Shown here piece by piece: positions 1,628 through 59,435 of a stretch of 64,000 nucleotides of DNA. The stretch comes from Acidobacteriota bacterium. GTDB taxonomy: Bacteria; Acidobacteriota; UBA6911; JACQSX01. The stretch is taken from NCBI GenBank assembly GCA_036507075.1, contig DASXQR010000017.1, positions 93,188 to 157,187 on the forward strand, in the 5' to 3' direction. The notes below the pieces were generated by a model. That model saw only the letters and a list, made by a program, of their open reading frames with translations, was not told where the DNA came from and made no database searches. The translations under genes and the position numbers were made by a program. The first letter of the stretch is position 1, and each line of letters opens with the position of its first letter.

Positions 1628-2717
1628 TTAGAAGACGTACCGCAAGCCGAGCCAGATTTCACGCCTTCCGCCGTCGGTGCCCCATTGGTTGAGAAAATTT
1701 GAGGAGTTAACGCGCCCCTCCGGAATGCCAAAGTTCCGCGTATTGGTGGCGTTGAACATATCCACCCGGAACTGCAGGCGATGGTTCTCCGTGATGCGGG
1801 TATTTTTCTGGAATCCCATATCCAGATTTCCAATGCCGTCTGCTCGCAGGGTGTTTCTTCCCACGTTCCCGGTTCGCACTCCTGAGCTCGGCAAGCGTGA
1901 AAACAGACTTGCGCCGCCGGCCTTCACCAGTTCCTCAATCGACATAGAAGCAATATTGAGATTTGTATTCAGGTTGGGGCGAATAGCGTTCCCAACCAGG
2001 CTATCAATACCACTCAGGGCGCCTGTCGGATCTGCGCCATTCAGGACGGTGAACGGCGCTCCGCTCTGAAACGTGAAAAAGGAATTCAACTGCCAGCCAC
2101 CAAGGATATGGCCCGTCACTCCCTGTTGTTCTCTAAAAAAGGGAAGTTCATACACAATATTCCCGGTGAGACGGTGCGGACGATCATACGAAGATCTTGC
2201 GCGATCCGCCCGCCTGTTGAATGAATCCTGCGAAACGGCAACTTCGCCTCCAGACGGGTTGAAGATTTCCGATGCGTCGTCGATATAAGCGCTCCAGGTA
2301 TAGTGCAACTCGGAAGGGTGCTTCTTTTCTCCCGGCACTTTTATCCAGATTACTTAAAGAATTCAATTTGTTGCCGTTGTAGAACTCGAAGGCGGAGCCG
2401 TGAAAGCGGTTGGACCCGCTTTTGGTAATAATGTTCATGACCGAGCCGGCGCTCCGGCCGTACTCTGCGGCAAACTGGTTTGTAATCAGCCGGACCTCTT
2501 GAACAATGTCGGTGTTGTTGATCGGCTGCTGTCGACCGGAAACACTCGGATCATTGCTATCCTGCCCGTCGATCATGAAGTTATTCGAGCGCAGCCTCAT
2601 TCCGTTGACCGAGAAATTCACTCCGCTGGCGAAATCGGATTGACCGCTGCCGAGCTGGCTTACGCCCGGTGCCGAGAGGGCCCTCGGGCCGTCTCTCCAC
2701 CCTGAAAATTGTCCCAC
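1628..2717 (-). pseudogene. TonB-dependent receptor remnant (plug domain plus C-terminal barrel end; frameshifted, 5'-truncated, internally deleted)
   Basis: Two overlapping minus-strand ORFs, 2184..2717 (plug-domain motifs NGMRLRSNNFMIDG, AEYGRSAGSVMNIITKSG) and 1628..2338 (barrel C-terminus ending LGLRYVF); combined ~360 aa against 700-1100 aa for intact receptors; the 5' end is replaced by a Y-type repeat terminus and a 16-bp tandem array. Confidence 0.65.
2675..2698. repeat. partial copy (terminal ~22 bp) of the Y element (GGAGACGGCCCTCGGGCCGTCTCTCC-type terminus)
   Basis: AGAGGGCCCTCGGGCCGTCTCTCC matches the termini of the ~90-bp elements at 13209-13296 and 24555-24644; it forms the 5' end of the TBDR pseudo-ORF. 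Confidence 0.7.
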
Positions 2718-2800
2718 CCTAAAATTGTCCCACCCTAAAATTGTCCTGCTCTAAAAATTGTCCCAGTCTAAAAATTGGTCGCACTCTAAAAAATGTCCAA
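2698..2800. repeat. direct tandem array, 16-18-bp unit CCCACCCTAAAATTGT, about 6 copies degenerating 3'-ward
   Basis: Read directly: ccaccctgaaaattgt / cccaccctaaaattgt x2 / cctgctctaaaaattgt / cccagtctaaaaattggt / cgcactctaaaaaatgt. Confidence 0.9.
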
Positions 2801-3505
2801 ACTCCAGCCCCTTTTGAGGCCCGAATCTACGGCACACCTTACTTTGTCCCGATAAAGATCTTTGTCATCTGTGCTGGAGGGAGGAACAAGGGGCGGGTGA
2901 AACATGACCTCTACCTGGCCTCTGTTGAGCTTCCAATTCCCTTTGGGTTGAATCTCGCGCGTCCCGACCAGCGTAATGGGAACGATGGGCACGCCGGACT
3001 TGATCGACAGGATAAATCCTCCCCCCTTGAAGGCACCCAAGGTGCCGTCTCGGCTCCGGGTGCCTTCGGGATAAAGAAGAAACGAATCGCCGCTTGTGGC
3101 CTGTTCGATAGCCCGGTCGATAGCGCCCCTTCCGGCTTCCGTATCGCCCCGGTCCACCGGCACACAGCGTGCCAGCCGCATTGCCGTCGAGAGGATCGGC
3201 AGCCTCAAGAGCTCCTTTTTGAAGATCACCTTGATGTCATGAGGAATGCAGGCAAAACATACCGGAGGATCCACGTTGCTGACGTGATTGGCCATAAAAA
3301 TGAAATTTCTGGAGGCCAGATTCTCGGTGTCACCGCGAATCCGGATCCGAATGCCGGCAATCCTGAAAGCCGCGCGGATAGTCCACCGGGCTACCACGTA
3401 CATCGGATGCGGATTGCTCGTGATGGCGGTATAAAGAAGCAAGACCGGTCCGGCAAGGATGAGAACCACGGAAATCAAGAGCATTATTGCCAGCGTGCGG
3501 ATCAT
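2786..3505 (-). CDS. plsC: 1-acyl-sn-glycerol-3-phosphate acyltransferase
   Basis: 239 aa; N-terminal TM helix; acyltransferase motifs NHVSNVDP (HX4D block) and PEGTRS. Confidence 0.85.
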   Translation of the reverse strand: MIRTLAIMLLISVVLILAGPVLLLYTAITSNPHPMYVVARWTIRAAFRIAGIRIRIRGDTENLASRNFIFMANHVSNVDPPVCFACIPHDIKVIFKKELLRLPILSTAMRLARCVPVDRGDTEAGRGAIDRAIEQATSGDSFLLYPEGTRSRDGTLGAFKGGGFILSIKSGVPIVPITLVGTREIQPKGNWKLNRGQVEVMFHPPLVPPSSTDDKDLYRDKVRCAVDSGLKRGWSLDIF

Positions 3506-52335: not shown

Positions 52336-52929
52336 ATGCCAGTCAAAATTTCAGAACCACCCGTGGAATCTAAAGAGAAGAGGATCGAAGACAAGCTGCG
52401 CGACTTGATTGAAGAAATGGGCGAAGACCCGGAGCGTGACGGCCTGCGGGAAACACCCCAGAGAATGGCCGAGTCATTCCGATTTTTGACCAGCGGATAC
52501 CGGGTTGATCCCATGAAGCTCATCAAGGACGCGCTTTTCGATGTCAGTTACAACGAAATGGTGATCGTCAAGAACATTGAAGTATTCTCACTTTGCGAAC
52601 ACCACGTCCTCCCCTTTTATGGGAAGTGCCATGTGGCTTATATTCCGAACGGCAGGGTAATCGGACTGAGCAAAATCCCGCGGGTGGTGGACGCGTTTGC
52701 CCGCAGGCTGCAGATCCAGGAGCGCCTGACGGTCCAGATTGCGGAAACAATCGAAGAAGCGGTCCGTCCCAGAGGGGTGGCTGTGGTGATGGAGGCGGTG
52801 CATCTTTGCATGGTGATGCGCGGCGTGGAAAAGCAAAATAGCGTCGCCGTCACAAGCTCCATGCTGGGCACATTCAAGGAGCACATGGAAACCAGGAATG
52901 AATTCCTGAGTCTGATCGGCAGGAAGTAA
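52336..52929 (+). CDS. folE: GTP cyclohydrolase I
   Basis: 197 aa; conserved [20 protein letters not shown] and RLQIQERLT blocks. Confidence 0.95.
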
Positions 52930-52931
52930 AA

Positions 52932-53969
52932 TTGGGCGAAGGCGCGAACAGCGCGATTATGCAAAGTGAAAAAGAGCTTTACTTCAGATACATCGAGAAA
53001 AAAGGCTTAAAGAATACCGAGCAGCGGCTCCAGATTCTTGAGACGTTCCTGCAGATGCCGGGCCATTTCACCGCTTTCGATCTTCACGCGATTGTGAAGA
53101 AGAAAAATCCGCAGATTGGCATCTCTACCGTCTTTCGCACCATGAAACTGCTCGAGGAATGCGGTCTTGCCAAATCCGTCAAGATCAGCGATGAAGAGAA
53201 GAGCTACGAATACAATCCGACGCACCACCATCATCTGGTTTGCTCGGAATGTCATGCCACTATCGAGTTCATCCATCCGACGCTGGAGCGAATCATGGAG
53301 GAGATTCCCCTCGAGTACGGATTCGTTGCCACCGGCCACAAACTGCAGATCTTCGGCACGTGCGAGAAATGTCAGAAGGGCGCCAAGATGGAAAAAGGGG
53401 GCGGGCCCGTACAGGAAAACGTTTCGAAGGTTTTCGAGCGCGATGTGCTCCGCATTTTCGTCCAGACAGAGGAGCGCGGGATCAGGTTCTACAGCTCAAG
53501 ACTGAACCGATTCAAGGAAGACTGGAGCCGCCGTCTTTTCTCCGCGCTGGCAGAGGAAGAGAACCATCACCTGCAGCTGCTGCAGCGCCAGTATCAGAAA
53601 CTGCTGCAGGAAAATCGGTGGCTGGAGGAAAAGCCGCGGTTCTTTATCTTCGATTCCAATGAAGTCGCCAACGCGTTCAGCCGTTCGTCTTCGGACTTCA
53701 AGAAGACTCTCACCGGCCAGGACGATGAAATGAACACCCTGAAAGAAGCCTGGCATATGGAGAAAGAAAATCACGAGTTCTTTGCCAACATGGCGGGAAA
53801 ACTGGACGGCGTGGGCAGAGAACTGTGCCTGGAGTTTGCAGACGAAGAAAAGCATCACATGCAGTTGATCCAGTTTGCCATCGACAACCTTCAGCGGGTC
53901 CGTTCCGATCCCGAGCAGCGCGCCATTTTCATCAAACAACTGGAAAAAGAAATACTGCAGCTTAAATAA
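52932..53969 (+). CDS. Fur-family transcriptional regulator fused to a C-terminal rubrerythrin-like (ferritin-like diiron) domain
   Basis: 345 aa; residues ~15-155 form a complete Fur/PerR domain (TVFR helix, HHHHLVCSEC, GTCEKC); residues ~160-345 carry the four-helix pattern E / EExxH / E / EExxH (VQTEERG, LAEEENHHLQ, MEKENHEFF, FADEEKHHMQ). Confidence 0.8.
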   Translation: MGEGANSAIMQSEKELYFRYIEKKGLKNTEQRLQILETFLQMPGHFTAFDLHAIVKKKNPQIGISTVFRTMKLLEECGLAKSVKISDEEKSYEYNPTHHHHLVCSECHATIEFIHPTLERIMEEIPLEYGFVATGHKLQIFGTCEKCQKGAKMEKGGGPVQENVSKVFERDVLRIFVQTEERGIRFYSSRLNRFKEDWSRRLFSALAEEENHHLQLLQRQYQKLLQENRWLEEKPRFFIFDSNEVANAFSRSSSDFKKTLTGQDDEMNTLKEAWHMEKENHEFFANMAGKLDGVGRELCLEFADEEKHHMQLIQFAIDNLQRVRSDPEQRAIFIKQLEKEILQLK

Positions 53970-54230
53970 CAACCGTAAGAACCAAGCCAGGAGCCGAACC
54001 GCGCGCGTAAGCAAGCGGACCCTGCACTGGGAATTTGACCACGAAGCCACGAAGAGCCGCTATTCATTTTGTTGAACACTTCCCATAACTCGATCAGATT
54101 GTCGAAGAAGTGGCACTTCTAACTTGATCGTTGTTCTTCGGGTCTTCGTGCTTTCGTGGCAAATCCCCAGTGCAGGGTCCGCTTGCTTACGCGCGCGGTT
54201 CGGCTCCTGGCTTGGTTCTTACAACCAACC
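53969..54230. repeat. nested palindromic element: ~68-bp near-perfect outer inverted repeat (53969-54037 and 54160-54230) around CACGAAG-type inner arms and the apex core GAAGTGGCACTTC
   Basis: Read directly; followed by a short CAAC/ACGGACA tandem stretch running into the ATG at 54259. Confidence 0.9.
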
Positions 54231-54258: not shown

Positions 54259-55242
54259 ATGAATTACAGAATACTGGGCAAAAGCGGCCTCCGAGTGAGT
54301 GAAATAGGCTTCGGGTGTTGGGCGATTGGCGGACCCTTCGAGTTGAGCGGGTTGCCGATCGGATGGGGTCCCGTGGATGACAACCAGTCGATAGCCGCAG
54401 TGCGCCGCGCTCTGGAACTGGGTGTGAACTTTTTCGATACCGCCGATGTGTACGGTTTTGGACACAGCGAGAAAATACTGGGCGAAGCGCTGCGCGGGTT
54501 CCGGAATTCGGTTGTGATTGCGTCCAAAGTGGGCAACACCCGCCAGGCGGACGGCATGCGCTTGAAGGATTTTTCCGCGCGCCACATTGTGAAGTCTTGC
54601 GACGATTCCCTTTGCAGGCTGGGAACGGATTACATTGATCTTTACCAGTTGCACAACCCCACCTTGGACCAGATTTTTTCAGGAGATGCGGGAGAGGCGC
54701 TGGAGAAACTTCAGTCGTCGGGAAAAATTCGCAGCTTCGGCGTCTCCATCAGCCATCCTTCAGAAGGCCTGGAAATCATTGGAAGGAACTTCGGCGCTAC
54801 CCTGCAGGTTCTTTATAACGTTTTGAACCAGAAACCGGCGGACGGTTTATTCAATGCCGCCAGGAAAAACGACTGCGGAATTATTGTGCGCGTGCCTCTG
54901 GCCTCCGCTTTACTCACCGGAAAGATCAGATCCGGCAGTTTTGATCCCCGGGACAATCGCAACAATTTCCTCACCGCCTCCAGGCTGCAGGAAGTGCTTC
55001 CAAAAGTAGATCGTTATCTTGAGCTGTGCAGGGATTACTCGCTCCGACCGGTTCAGGCCGCTCTGAAATTCATTCTGGCGCATCCGGCCGTCAGCACCGC
55101 TATACCGGGAGCGAAATCCACCGAGCAGGTTGACGAGAACGTTGCTGCATGCAAAGCGGAAATGCCTCCCGGGATGCTGGAGTCCCTGCGCCGGGAATTC
55201 AGGACCTACAATTTTTATCTGCGTCATGGGATCAAAATATGA
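54259..55242 (+). CDS. aldo/keto reductase
   Basis: 327 aa; AKR catalytic tetrad context (D..Y..K..H), GFGCW N-terminal motif. Confidence 0.9.
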   Translation: MNYRILGKSGLRVSEIGFGCWAIGGPFELSGLPIGWGPVDDNQSIAAVRRALELGVNFFDTADVYGFGHSEKILGEALRGFRNSVVIASKVGNTRQADGMRLKDFSARHIVKSCDDSLCRLGTDYIDLYQLHNPTLDQIFSGDAGEALEKLQSSGKIRSFGVSISHPSEGLEIIGRNFGATLQVLYNVLNQKPADGLFNAARKNDCGIIVRVPLASALLTGKIRSGSFDPRDNRNNFLTASRLQEVLPKVDRYLELCRDYSLRPVQAALKFILAHPAVSTAIPGAKSTEQVDENVAACKAEMPPGMLESLRREFRTYNFYLRHGIKI

Positions 55243-57931: not shown

Positions 57932-58462
57932 ATGGAAGAGATGCAAGAGGAGCTTCAGGTCCATATGGCTTCGGCGATTCCCGTGATCGGCGAGTCGAAG
58001 GAGCCTAAGCCAAATTTCATTACCACCACCGTGGAACAGGTCTTTCGCTGGGCCCGGAAATCATCGCTCTGGCCGATGACCTTTGGCCTGGCCTGCTGTG
58101 CCATCGAGATGATGGCTACGGGCGCTTCTCGTTTTGACATGGACCGTTTTGGCGCCGGGATTTTTCGTCCCAGCCCCCGCCAGTCCGATCTGATCATTAT
58201 CGCGGGAACCGTGACTCTGAAGATGGCGCCGATCGTGAAGCGCGTGTACGACCAGATGCCCGATCCCAAGTGGGTGATCTCCATGGGCGCCTGCTCAAAT
58301 TGCGGTGGTCCTTTCAATTCCTATTCGGTTCTGCAGGGAGTCGACAAGGTGATTCCGGTGGACGTTTACATTCCGGGATGCCCTCCCCGGCCGGAGGCTC
58401 TGCTGTACGGAGTGATGAGACTGCAGGACAAGATCATGGGTAAAGCCGGAAAGGTCGCTTAA
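57932..58462 (+). CDS. nuoB: NADH-quinone oxidoreductase subunit B, copy 1
   Basis: 176 aa; N2-cluster cysteines ([20 protein letters not shown]). Confidence 0.9.
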
Positions 58463-58464
58463 AT

Positions 58465-58932
58465 ATGAACTTGCTGCGGCGCATCTTGTTCATCGACATT
58501 ATCAAAGGTTTGTTGATCACGTTTCCTTACATGTTCCGCCGTACTTATACGGAACAATATCCGACGCAGCGGCCGCAGATTGCGGAACGGTACCGAGGTG
58601 CGCCGCGATTGAATCTTGATCCTGAGACCAAAGAGACGTTGTGCATCTCATGCAACCTCTGCGCCCTGGCCTGCCCGGAGGACCTGATCGTAGTTACCAG
58701 CGAACGGGATCCAAAGACCAGCCGAAAAATCCTGCAGGAGTTTACCTTTGACCTGTCACGCTGCCTGTTCTGCGGATTGTGCCAGGAAGCATGTCCGGTC
58801 AATGCCATCGAACTGACACAGTATTTCGAACTGGCTGCCTACGACAAGAACGGTTCGAAATGGGACAAGTACAAACTTGAGCACGGACCAACAGCGCTGC
58901 CCGGCTTGAGCCCGACGTCTGATGCGAAATGA
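58465..58932 (+). CDS. nuoI: NADH-quinone oxidoreductase subunit I (2x[4Fe-4S])
   Basis: 155 aa; two CxxCxxCxxxCP motifs. Confidence 0.9.
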   Translation: MNLLRRILFIDIIKGLLITFPYMFRRTYTEQYPTQRPQIAERYRGAPRLNLDPETKETLCISCNLCALACPEDLIVVTSERDPKTSRKILQEFTFDLSRCLFCGLCQEACPVNAIELTQYFELAAYDKNGSKWDKYKLEHGPTALPGLSPTSDAK

Positions 58933-59435
58933 AGAGTTACAAGATCATTCAGTATCCCGACCCGATACTGCGCAAAGTGGCGCCGCCCGTTAAAGTATTT
59001 GACCGAAAGCTTGCGTCAGCGGCGCAAAGGATGATCGCGACGATGTACCGGAACAAAGGAGTCGGTCTGGCCGGGCCGCAGGTCAATCTCCTGGAGCGCA
59101 TCCTGGTCATCGATACTTCGGAGAATCGAGACCAGCCTCGCGTGGTGATCAATCCTGAGATCCTTCATTCTGAAGGCAAGATCGCCATGGAGGAAGGGTG
59201 TCTCAGTATCCCCGACGTGAGAATCCGTGTCGTGAGGGCGGCGCAGGTCACCGTCAAGGCCCAGGACGAACTGGGGCGCTTTTTCCAAATCACGGCAAGC
59301 GACCTGGAGGCAGTCGTCTTCCAGCATGAGATCGATCACCTCAATGGTGTTCTGATCCTGGATTACGCCTCACCCGAGGCGGAGTTCGGGCCGCAAGCAG
59401 ACAGTGAAAAACCATCGCGTCTGGCCTCGCGATGA
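58929..59435 (+). CDS. def: peptide deformylase
   Basis: 168 aa; GVGLAGPQ, EGCLS and QHEIDHLNG motifs; ATGA overlap with nuoI. Confidence 0.9.
   Translation: MKSYKIIQYPDPILRKVAPPVKVFDRKLASAAQRMIATMYRNKGVGLAGPQVNLLERILVIDTSENRDQPRVVINPEILHSEGKIAMEEGCLSIPDVRIRVVRAAQVTVKAQDELGRFFQITASDLEAVVFQHEIDHLNGVLILDYASPEAEFGPQADSEKPSRLASR

Follow-up and report, generated by a model that had tools for sequence, protein, structure and literature searches.

In textbooks, the sensing of iron and peroxide by bacteria is exemplified by regulators of the Fur family, and to our knowledge those described so far are single-module proteins of about 130-170 residues. In Desulfovibrio, the perR, rbr and rdl genes form one operon, and in the hemerythrin-domain sensors (FBXL5; the bacterial hemerythrin-diguanylate cyclases) a diiron four-helix bundle serves as the iron or O2 sensor on an output module. 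MbfA, in which an erythrin domain is joined to the iron exporter VIT1, provides a precedent for the fusion of an erythrin-type diiron domain to an iron-homeostasis module. The gene described here lies on the + strand of a 64,000-nucleotide stretch of contig DASXQR010000017.1 from an Acidobacteriota bacterium (assembly GCA_036507075.1), which we will refer to as the window. Like the Desulfovibrio genes, it brings together a Fur-family regulator and a diiron protein of the rubrerythrin superfamily, but they are part of one chain here and of one operon there. In comparison to MbfA, the erythrin domain is joined to a transcription factor instead of a membrane transporter, and the hemerythrin sensors, whose fold family (with His-rich ligands) and outputs differ, are a conceptual analogue only. 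In the literature searched, no transcription factor with a ferritin-fold sensor domain was encountered, nor did full-text literature searches yield any account of Fur fused to a rubrerythrin or ferritin-like domain. The fusion is a real feature, and the protein represents an Acidobacteriota-wide variant of the Fur family that carries a fused erythrin-type diiron domain.

The fusion protein, its family and its Fur-type module

Both halves of the protein are encoded by one uninterrupted open reading frame (ORF) at 52932..53969, which is 345 aa long when counted from a TTG codon and contains no stop or frameshift between them. Both Pfam domains (PF01475 and PF02915) were found in this ORF, and the fusion is thus as it was placed in the original prediction, an earlier reading of this DNA from its letters alone. 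The fusion is not an assembly artefact. The main features of the gene are given below, where the residue numbers of motifs and ligands, as elsewhere in this text, are those of the 336-aa form beginning at an ATG codon.

52932..53969, + strand: ORF of the fusion protein at its maximal extent (345 aa counted from TTG; coordinates include the stop)
52959..53969, + strand: likely coding sequence, which starts at ATG and gives 336 aa (MQSEKELYF...), based on orthologue starts and NCBI annotation
52998..53351, + strand: Fur-family domain (winged-helix DNA-binding part plus dimerisation/metal part), Pfam PF01475
53223..53252, + strand: HHHHLVCSEC, containing regulatory-site His90 and His92 and the first CxxC (C95, C98) of the structural zinc site, invariant in 99/99
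53361..53372, + strand: second CxxC (C135, C138) of the Cys4 zinc site, invariant in 99/99
53379..53426, + strand: variable inter-domain linker, residues about 141-156 (~16 residues), recognised by a drop in identity and low model confidence
53427..53906, + strand: erythrin-type ferritin-like four-helix bundle, based on Pfam PF02915, PDB profile, AlphaFold2 (AF2) and Foldseek
53469-71 (E171), 53559-70 (E201/H204), 53760-62 (E268) and 53847-58 (E297/H300), + strand: diiron ligands, plus Y178
53910..53963, + strand: extra C-terminal helix, residues 318-335, from the AF2 model, specific to the clade of the window protein

A search of 5.8 billion proteins recovered 103 clusters of related proteins, nearly all of them 306-345 aa in length and with the same two-domain architecture, and most carrying both Pfam domains. 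Eight of these clusters are 75-82% identical to the window protein and all of the others 26-39%. The entries P0100-P0103, which were considered as stand-alone homologues of the C-terminal domain, were rejected as truncated copies of the fusion. A survey for the same fusion in other genomes, proposed for Acidobacteriota in the original prediction, was carried out on one genome per GTDB species, and at least 554 of the 600 pattern-matched stretches from these species-representative genomes encode a relative. The best 80 loci, from which the taxonomy was taken, are almost all from Acidobacteriota (Terriglobia, Vicinamibacterales and unclassified metagenome-assembled genomes, MAGs). The family is uncharacterised, it is conserved in hundreds of Acidobacteriota genomes, and the fusion architecture is an ancient character of this phylum. 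The source databases label its members only as "transcriptional repressor" or "Fur family ferric uptake (transcriptional) regulator", and these labels hide the second domain. Some genomes seem to carry two fusion paralogues, as two separate loci of the survey (L004 and L009) are present in one MAG (JBOGJG01). For another locus (L058), ORF clustering suggested two tandem copies, of which a later tblastn search recovered only one at full length.

The N-terminal module matches the Pfam FUR family (PF01475) over residues 23-140 and profile positions 1-120 of 121 (E 1.9e-32). Among proteins of solved structure, Campylobacter jejuni Fur (6d57, 8.4e-26) is ahead of Bacillus subtilis PerR (2fe3, 2.9e-20), and structures of Zur also match this module (3mwm, 1.4e-19; 2o03, 7.6e-19). 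The AF2 model of the fusion protein (predicted local distance difference test score, pLDDT, 88.8; predicted template-modelling score, pTM, 0.79) superposes best in Foldseek on closed, metal-bound Fur, viz. 2xig (template-modelling score, TM, 0.81; root-mean-square deviation, rmsd, 2.2 A) and 5nhk (TM 0.83, rmsd 2.0 A). The motifs quoted in the original prediction, HHHHLVCSEC and GTCEKC (nt 53355-53372) in this module and E, EExxH, E, EExxH in the C-terminal half, are all present. In an alignment of 99 family members, on which all of our counts for the Fur sites are based, R60, E84, H90, H92, E103, C95, C98, C135 and C138 are invariant, and H36 is present in 98 of the 99. An ungapped alignment with B. 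subtilis PerR (2fe3) gives the following equivalences:

PerR H37: window H36
PerR D85: window E84
PerR H91: window H90
PerR H93: window H92
PerR D104: window E103
PerR N61: window R60

Asn61 and Asp104 are regarded as the canonical PerR residues, Fur carries Arg and Glu in their place (R61 in B. subtilis Fur), and a Glu-to-Asp change renders Fur sensitive to H2O2 (PMC8638851). The window protein contains the Fur-type residues, viz. the Arg of recognition helix H4 (R60) and Glu at the position of PerR D104 (E103), and the residues of the PerR subfamily (Asn in H4 and Asp104) were found in 0/99 members, which have Arg and Glu instead. Judged by these residues, the N-terminal module is evidently of the Fur type, not the PerR type, and of the earlier assignment to a Fur/PerR family it is the Fur-family part that stands.

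In its full-length domain match, Fur-type Arg, Cys4 zinc site and His/Glu/His/His/Glu site, the module resembles the Fur proteins of C. jejuni (6d57/4ets), Helicobacter pylori (2xig) and B. subtilis. The window protein is unlike them in the addition of a ferritin-like domain of ~180-190 residues, in that no Fur box was found near its gene, and in that the third Fur metal site (equivalents of H89, H91 and H127), although present in the window's clade, is not family-wide and is replaced in most of the family. Further, the NCBIfam Fur equivalogs NF051892, NF051891 and NF006999 gave scores of 82.2, 80.1 and 64.9 bits, respectively, none of which reached the corresponding cut-off (220, 200 and 146 bits), the NCBIfam PerR models scored no higher than 60 bits against cut-offs of 180-250, and no NCBIfam model passes its cut-off with the fusion protein.

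The C-terminal diiron domain

The linker between the two domains is the lowest-confidence stretch of the AF2 model (pLDDT 63-73). Within the family, mean pairwise identity drops to 23% in the linker, compared to 54% and 53% in the DNA-binding and dimerisation parts, respectively, and 49% in the erythrin domain. Because the linker identity is so far below that of both flanking domains, the picture suggested is one of two selected domains on a free or flexible tether.

The C-terminal domain scores above the cut-off of the Pfam Rubrerythrin family (PF02915, 22.8 bits), both within the whole protein (33.4 bits) and as the C-terminal half alone (35.5 bits). Its AF2 model (pLDDT 90.7, pTM 0.86) contains long helices at 4-29, 37-67, 105-130 and 133-165, which form two long helical hairpins linked by a helical crossover, and the ligands E171, E201/H204, E268 and E297/H300 are located on the predicted helices A-D. 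The top neighbours in the PDB by Foldseek are mainly ferritin-like (3ez0, bacterioferritin, 1vjx, 2fzf and MJ0754). When a profile built from 18 of these domains was run against all PDB sequences, TM1526 from Thermotoga maritima (1vjx, 8.7e-9) and a Pyrococcus furiosus protein (2fzf, 3.7e-8) were recovered, with further matches to encapsulated ferritins, designed diiron bundles, symerythrin (3qhb, 5e-3) and bacterioferritins. The ferritin-like fold foreseen for this half in the original prediction is borne out by these results. A Tyr seven residues after the first Glu, as found in the centres of ferritin, bacterioferritin and rubrerythrin, is present here as Y178. The ligand pattern E171/E201-x-x-H204/E268/E297-x-x-H300 is intact in 85 of the 99 metagenome proteins and, together with Y178, in 79 of the 80 copies from species genomes, which are ~30-40% identical to the window protein. 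From such conservation, both metal-ligand sets of the protein are evidently under strong purifying selection. Residues off the metal site that are invariant and specific to the family include F159, R161 and D162 at the start of helix A and P226, F228 and F231 in the crossover. The C-terminal helix formed by residues 318-335 is not found in the relatives of 30-40% identity, which end earlier or bear a basic tail.

The best solved sequence relatives of the domain are the COG1633/erythrin proteins (TM1526, 2fzf and symerythrin), which have the same two-hairpin bundle and E/ExxH/E/ExxH pattern but are single-domain proteins of enzymatic or unknown function. Compared with stand-alone erythrins, the window domain has in addition FxRD and PxFxxF motifs, a helical crossover insert and its tether to a DNA-binding regulator. 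A profile search of 1.84 billion representatives with the C-terminal domain gave 36 matches at E<=1e-30, all of them fusions or fragments, 821 at <=1e-10 and 6059 at <=1e-3, and stand-alone Rubrerythrin/DUF2383 proteins of 165-180 aa begin at about 1e-28. As the stand-alone homologues start at this value, after the fusions, the domain was apparently recruited from a pool of stand-alone COG1633-like proteins. The MbfA model (NF045676) scored only 28.7 bits against its cut-off of 450, with only the erythrin part aligned (residues 10-161 of the C-terminal half, E 8.5e-7), and the protein is therefore not MbfA.

These results bear upon the suggestion, made in the original prediction, that the protein joins a peroxide sensor of the PerR kind to rubrerythrin as its effector, i.e., the perR-rbr-rdl regulator-effector pair of Desulfovibrio as a fusion. 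PerR is among the solved relatives of the Fur module (2fe3), the equivalents of the oxidisable His residues (H36, H90) are present, and the Pfam family matched by the C-terminal domain is named Rubrerythrin. However, R60 in place of Asn and E84 and E103 in place of Asp are invariant throughout the family, and the PerR models of NCBIfam remained far below their cut-offs. Unlike the rubredoxin-containing peroxidase, the C-terminal domain has no rubredoxin module (no Pfam match, no CxxC after residue 138, and a protein that ends in helices), and the profile search of the PDB yielded no entry named rubrerythrin at E<=1; the nearest solved proteins are of the COG1633 type and the nearest stand-alone homologues are the 165-180-aa erythrin/DUF2383 proteins. 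By sequence and predicted structure, the domain is best classed as an erythrin-type ferritin-like fold resembling stand-alone COG1633 proteins, not as a peroxidase rubrerythrin. As it lacks a rubredoxin module and is erythrin-like, the regulator-effector fusion is not supported and we regard it as highly improbable.

It has also to be considered that the protein is bifunctional, combining a Fur regulator with an active ferroxidase/peroxidase or a mini iron store that detoxifies Fe(II)/H2O2 at the DNA or guards the Fe(II) site of Fur, roughly in the manner of Dps or rubrerythrin. A ligand pattern like that of ferroxidase centres, including the Tyr at +7, and the encapsulated ferritins, bacterioferritins and Dps-like proteins among its relatives would be in accordance with such activity. 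Nevertheless, we consider this quite unlikely, given the lack of a rubredoxin or other electron-entry domain, the missing match to any rubrerythrin-named structure, and the copy number of regulators, which is normally too low for bulk detoxification or storage. In addition, Desulfovibrio vulgaris rubrerythrin has a second Glu three residues after the helix-C ligand, and this Glu is absent here (E268-K-E-N; family consensus E-R-G-S).

Translation start, neighbouring genes and intergenic repeats

The maximal ORF is preceded by a Shine-Dalgarno-like motif, AGGAAG (52921-52926), 5 nt ahead of the TTG codon, and its start 3 nt after folE, as noted in the original prediction, is correct for this ORF. 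This spacing, however, rests upon an extension of nine residues that is conserved in no orthologue and does not hold for the likely start. The close orthologues P0002-P0009 begin with MQxEKELYF at, or a few residues from, the position of the ATG at 52959, and HEY2930613.1, which was annotated by NCBI and belongs to the same 90%-identity cluster as the window protein, is 336 aa in length, compared to 345 aa in the JGI call. Because the nine extra residues are unconserved, translation likely starts at ATG 52959 (336 aa) rather than at TTG. In six close relatives (L081, L083 and L085-L088 of the genome survey), a sigma-70-like promoter element, TTGAC-N17-TAC(C/T)AT(A/G)G, is located 12-16 nt ahead of the ATG of the fusion gene, and this short distance implies a very short leader. 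No such element is present at 52900-52960 of the window, because here the folE stop is only 29 nt upstream of ATG 52959. The loss of the element and the abutting folE stop suggest that the fusion gene is probably co-transcribed with folE in this genome. The adjacent genes are the following:

52336..52929, + strand: folE (GTP cyclohydrolase I, PF01227, E 3e-75), directly upstream of the fusion gene
54259..55242, + strand: aldo/keto reductase gene (PF00248, E 2.1e-60), downstream of the fusion gene

Within the clade of 75-82% identity, the conserved gene order is M24 peptidase (-), folE, fusion gene, aldo/keto reductase, pyridine-nucleotide-disulphide oxidoreductase (-), low-molecular-weight phosphatase/ArsC-like gene and nuo-like genes. 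Five relatives (L081, L083, L085, L086 and L088) have contigs that reach past the fusion gene, and in each of them the aldo/keto reductase gene follows it. The spacer between folE and the fusion gene ranges from 56 to 425 nt in this clade, and the adjacency of the two genes is kept only within it and is broken in L087 by the insertion of four genes. A compact unit at 57932-59435, ahead of nuoA-D, consists of a NuoB-like gene (Oxidored_q6), a 4Fe-4S ferredoxin-like gene and a peptide deformylase gene, and this arrangement is kept in the close relatives L081, L083 and L085.

The proximity of folE had been read as a hint of Zur or Fur control. The folE gene of the window is of the PF01227 type and the Zur-regulated paralogue is of another type (GCYH-IB/FolE2), so that this argument does not apply; the limited extent of the adjacency also speaks against it. 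The same observation bears on a further explanation, in which the metal read by the Fur module is not iron but Mn, Zn or Ni, as in Mur, Zur or Nur, and the diiron domain has nothing to do with the signal. That the Zur structures match well and that the neighbouring folE, M24 peptidase and map (methionine aminopeptidase) genes encode metalloenzymes could be cited in its favour, and metal specificity within the Fur family is not readable from sequence (PMC8638851). However, the best matches of the module are to Fur proper, the third Fur metal site varies across the family and the scan of the window revealed no Zur box. In view of this and of the type of its folE, we regard a role of this kind as very unlikely.

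Outside this clade the neighbours are different. Clustering of the neighbours of 80 loci revealed no family-wide operon partner; they vary by clade, and map is upstream in 13 loci. In 13 of the 59 evaluable loci, all of the Vicinamibacterales type, a gene for an ErpA/IscA-type Fe-S carrier (PF01521, Fe-S_biosyn, E 1.3e-20; protein ending in IKNPNAxSTCGCGQSF) lies immediately upstream on the same strand, at a distance of 9-173 nt (L052, L055, L056, L058, L060, L063, L064, L067, L069, L074, L075, L077 and L078). From this arrangement, erpA and the fusion gene appear to be a conserved gene pair that links the regulator to Fe-S metabolism. An apparent "FdhE-like" neighbour was rejected, being a spurious antisense ORF over the erpA gene. 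A divergent 2Fe-2S ferredoxin gene is adjacent in five loci and, as judged from sequence only, a putative TonB-dependent receptor gene in three. The fusion gene resembles a global regulator that stands alone rather than a member of a fixed operon, and some iron flavour without a universal partner is as expected for such a regulator.

The gap from the stop of the fusion gene to the start of the aldo/keto reductase gene is filled by a 63-nt inverted repeat (81 nt with gaps; 53975-54037 / 54160-54222), which is 98% complementary, has a 122-nt spacer and is without a second copy in the window. Such a repeat could act as a large hairpin terminator or represent a small mobile/palindromic element. 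The intergenic DNA of the window is rich in paired tandem-repeat arrays with units of 7-8 nt (or 15 nt), in which one array is followed by its reverse complement. One such pair is (GAATGCG)n with (CATTCCG)n after it, and long hairpins of short repeat units would form. Examples of them are:

1328-1433/1491-1625; 5239-5385/5478-5577; 19010-19041/19083-19114: paired repeat arrays
31832-31932/31974-32072; 55270-55330/55381-55404; 59747-59867/59958-60081: paired repeat arrays, further examples

Similar heptad arrays flank the fusion gene in L083, L086 and L088 and in L052, L056, L063 and L069, and they look like a genome-wide feature of these Acidobacteriota that is not tied to the fusion gene. The heptad hairpins beside the gene in relatives were rejected as operator arrays because paired arrays occur throughout the intergenic DNA of the window. 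Two other candidate operators were set aside, viz. the best Fur-like site in the window (8737), which lies between RadC and methyltransferase genes and is probably due to chance, and TGGAGA-N3-TCTCCA, the only palindrome recurring upstream of 59 distant homologues, which is coding sequence at the start codon. Lastly, six tandem copies of a 17-nt unit, CCACTCTAAAAATTGTC, are present at 2697-2798, near an acyltransferase gene (2786..3505, - strand) and a cut-off gene for an outer-membrane beta-barrel protein (1628..2338, - strand).

Possible roles of the diiron domain in regulation

We propose that the protein is a Fur-type repressor in which the diiron domain supplies a second input, either iron/redox-sensing or oligomerising, and for this step, which is drawn from sequence and models, we see an even chance of being correct. 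In such a regulator, the Fur module, with its winged helix, Cys4 structural zinc and His/Glu regulatory site for Fe(II)/Mn(II), would act as a metal-dependent repressor that binds its operators once the regulatory site is metallated. The flexible linker would tether to it an erythrin-type four-helix bundle with a predicted, complete carboxylate-bridged diiron site. A second input could arise from Fe(II) occupancy of this site or from oxidation of its diferrous centre by O2 or H2O2, and the state of the diiron domain would then change the conformation or oligomeric state of the protein and tune its binding to DNA. The regulator would thereby integrate iron supply with oxidative (Fenton) risk. 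The built-in diiron sensor of the original prediction is a viable idea. A bolder form of this proposal, which we put forward only tentatively and hold to be doubtful as it stands, is that the protein is the main iron regulator of Acidobacteriota and that a ferritin-fold diiron switch (diferrous versus diferric-oxo), sensitive to O2/H2O2 or to iron load, gates its Fur module. If this is true, then iron sufficiency and oxidant exposure would be computed in one polypeptide, by a mechanism undescribed for any transcription factor.

A number of observations weigh against a repressor of this kind. Scans of the 64-kb window for Fur (19-mer and 7-1-7), PerR, Zur and Irr/ICE boxes gave counts near those expected for shuffled sequence, and these canonical-box scans detected none of the four kinds of box near folE or the fusion gene. 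Footprinting upstream of the two genes in the six close relatives revealed only the sigma-70-like promoter and no palindrome, and the Fur-box-like operator sought there on the advice of the original prediction was thus not found. As the neighbourhoods differ between clades, no regulon can be inferred from them. The Foldseek scores of the C-terminal domain are weak (E >=0.013, TM 0.5-0.6). Finally, in 14 of the 99 proteins, mostly from one subclade, at least one diiron ligand is replaced by Asn, Lys, Asp or Ala and the Fur site is kept, which indicates that metal binding by the C-terminal domain is dispensable in some lineages.

The latter proteins, which have lost at least one diiron ligand and kept every Fur-site residue, would also be accounted for if the ferritin-like domain is mainly an oligomerisation domain or scaffold, which assembles Fur dimers into tetramers or higher forms or stabilises the dimer. 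Its metal site would in that case be structural or vestigial and regulation would take place only through the canonical Fur site. The invariant residues off the metal site (F159, R161, D162, P226, F228 and F231) could form an interface, and interaction surfaces are also suggested by what individual clades have added at the C-terminus, viz. an amphipathic helix in the window protein and basic tails in the Vicinamibacterales clade. However, all but one of the 80 species genomes retain the full ligand set and the second-shell Tyr at an overall identity of 30-40%, and this would hardly be expected if metal binding were not selected for. Further, the degenerate forms belong mostly to one subclade and, as indicated earlier, some genomes seem to have two paralogues. 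We therefore view a purely structural role as rather unlikely.

Acidobacteriota are among the most abundant and the least genetically tractable of soil phyla, and the fusion family offers a concrete route into their iron regulation. If the diiron domain supplies the second input that we propose, then one protein may read both iron supply and oxidative conditions. Whether a diiron site on a ferritin fold can serve as a sensor may be tested directly with this fusion, and a covalent, strongly conserved diiron domain on Fur would be a new wiring of metal and redox sensing into transcription.

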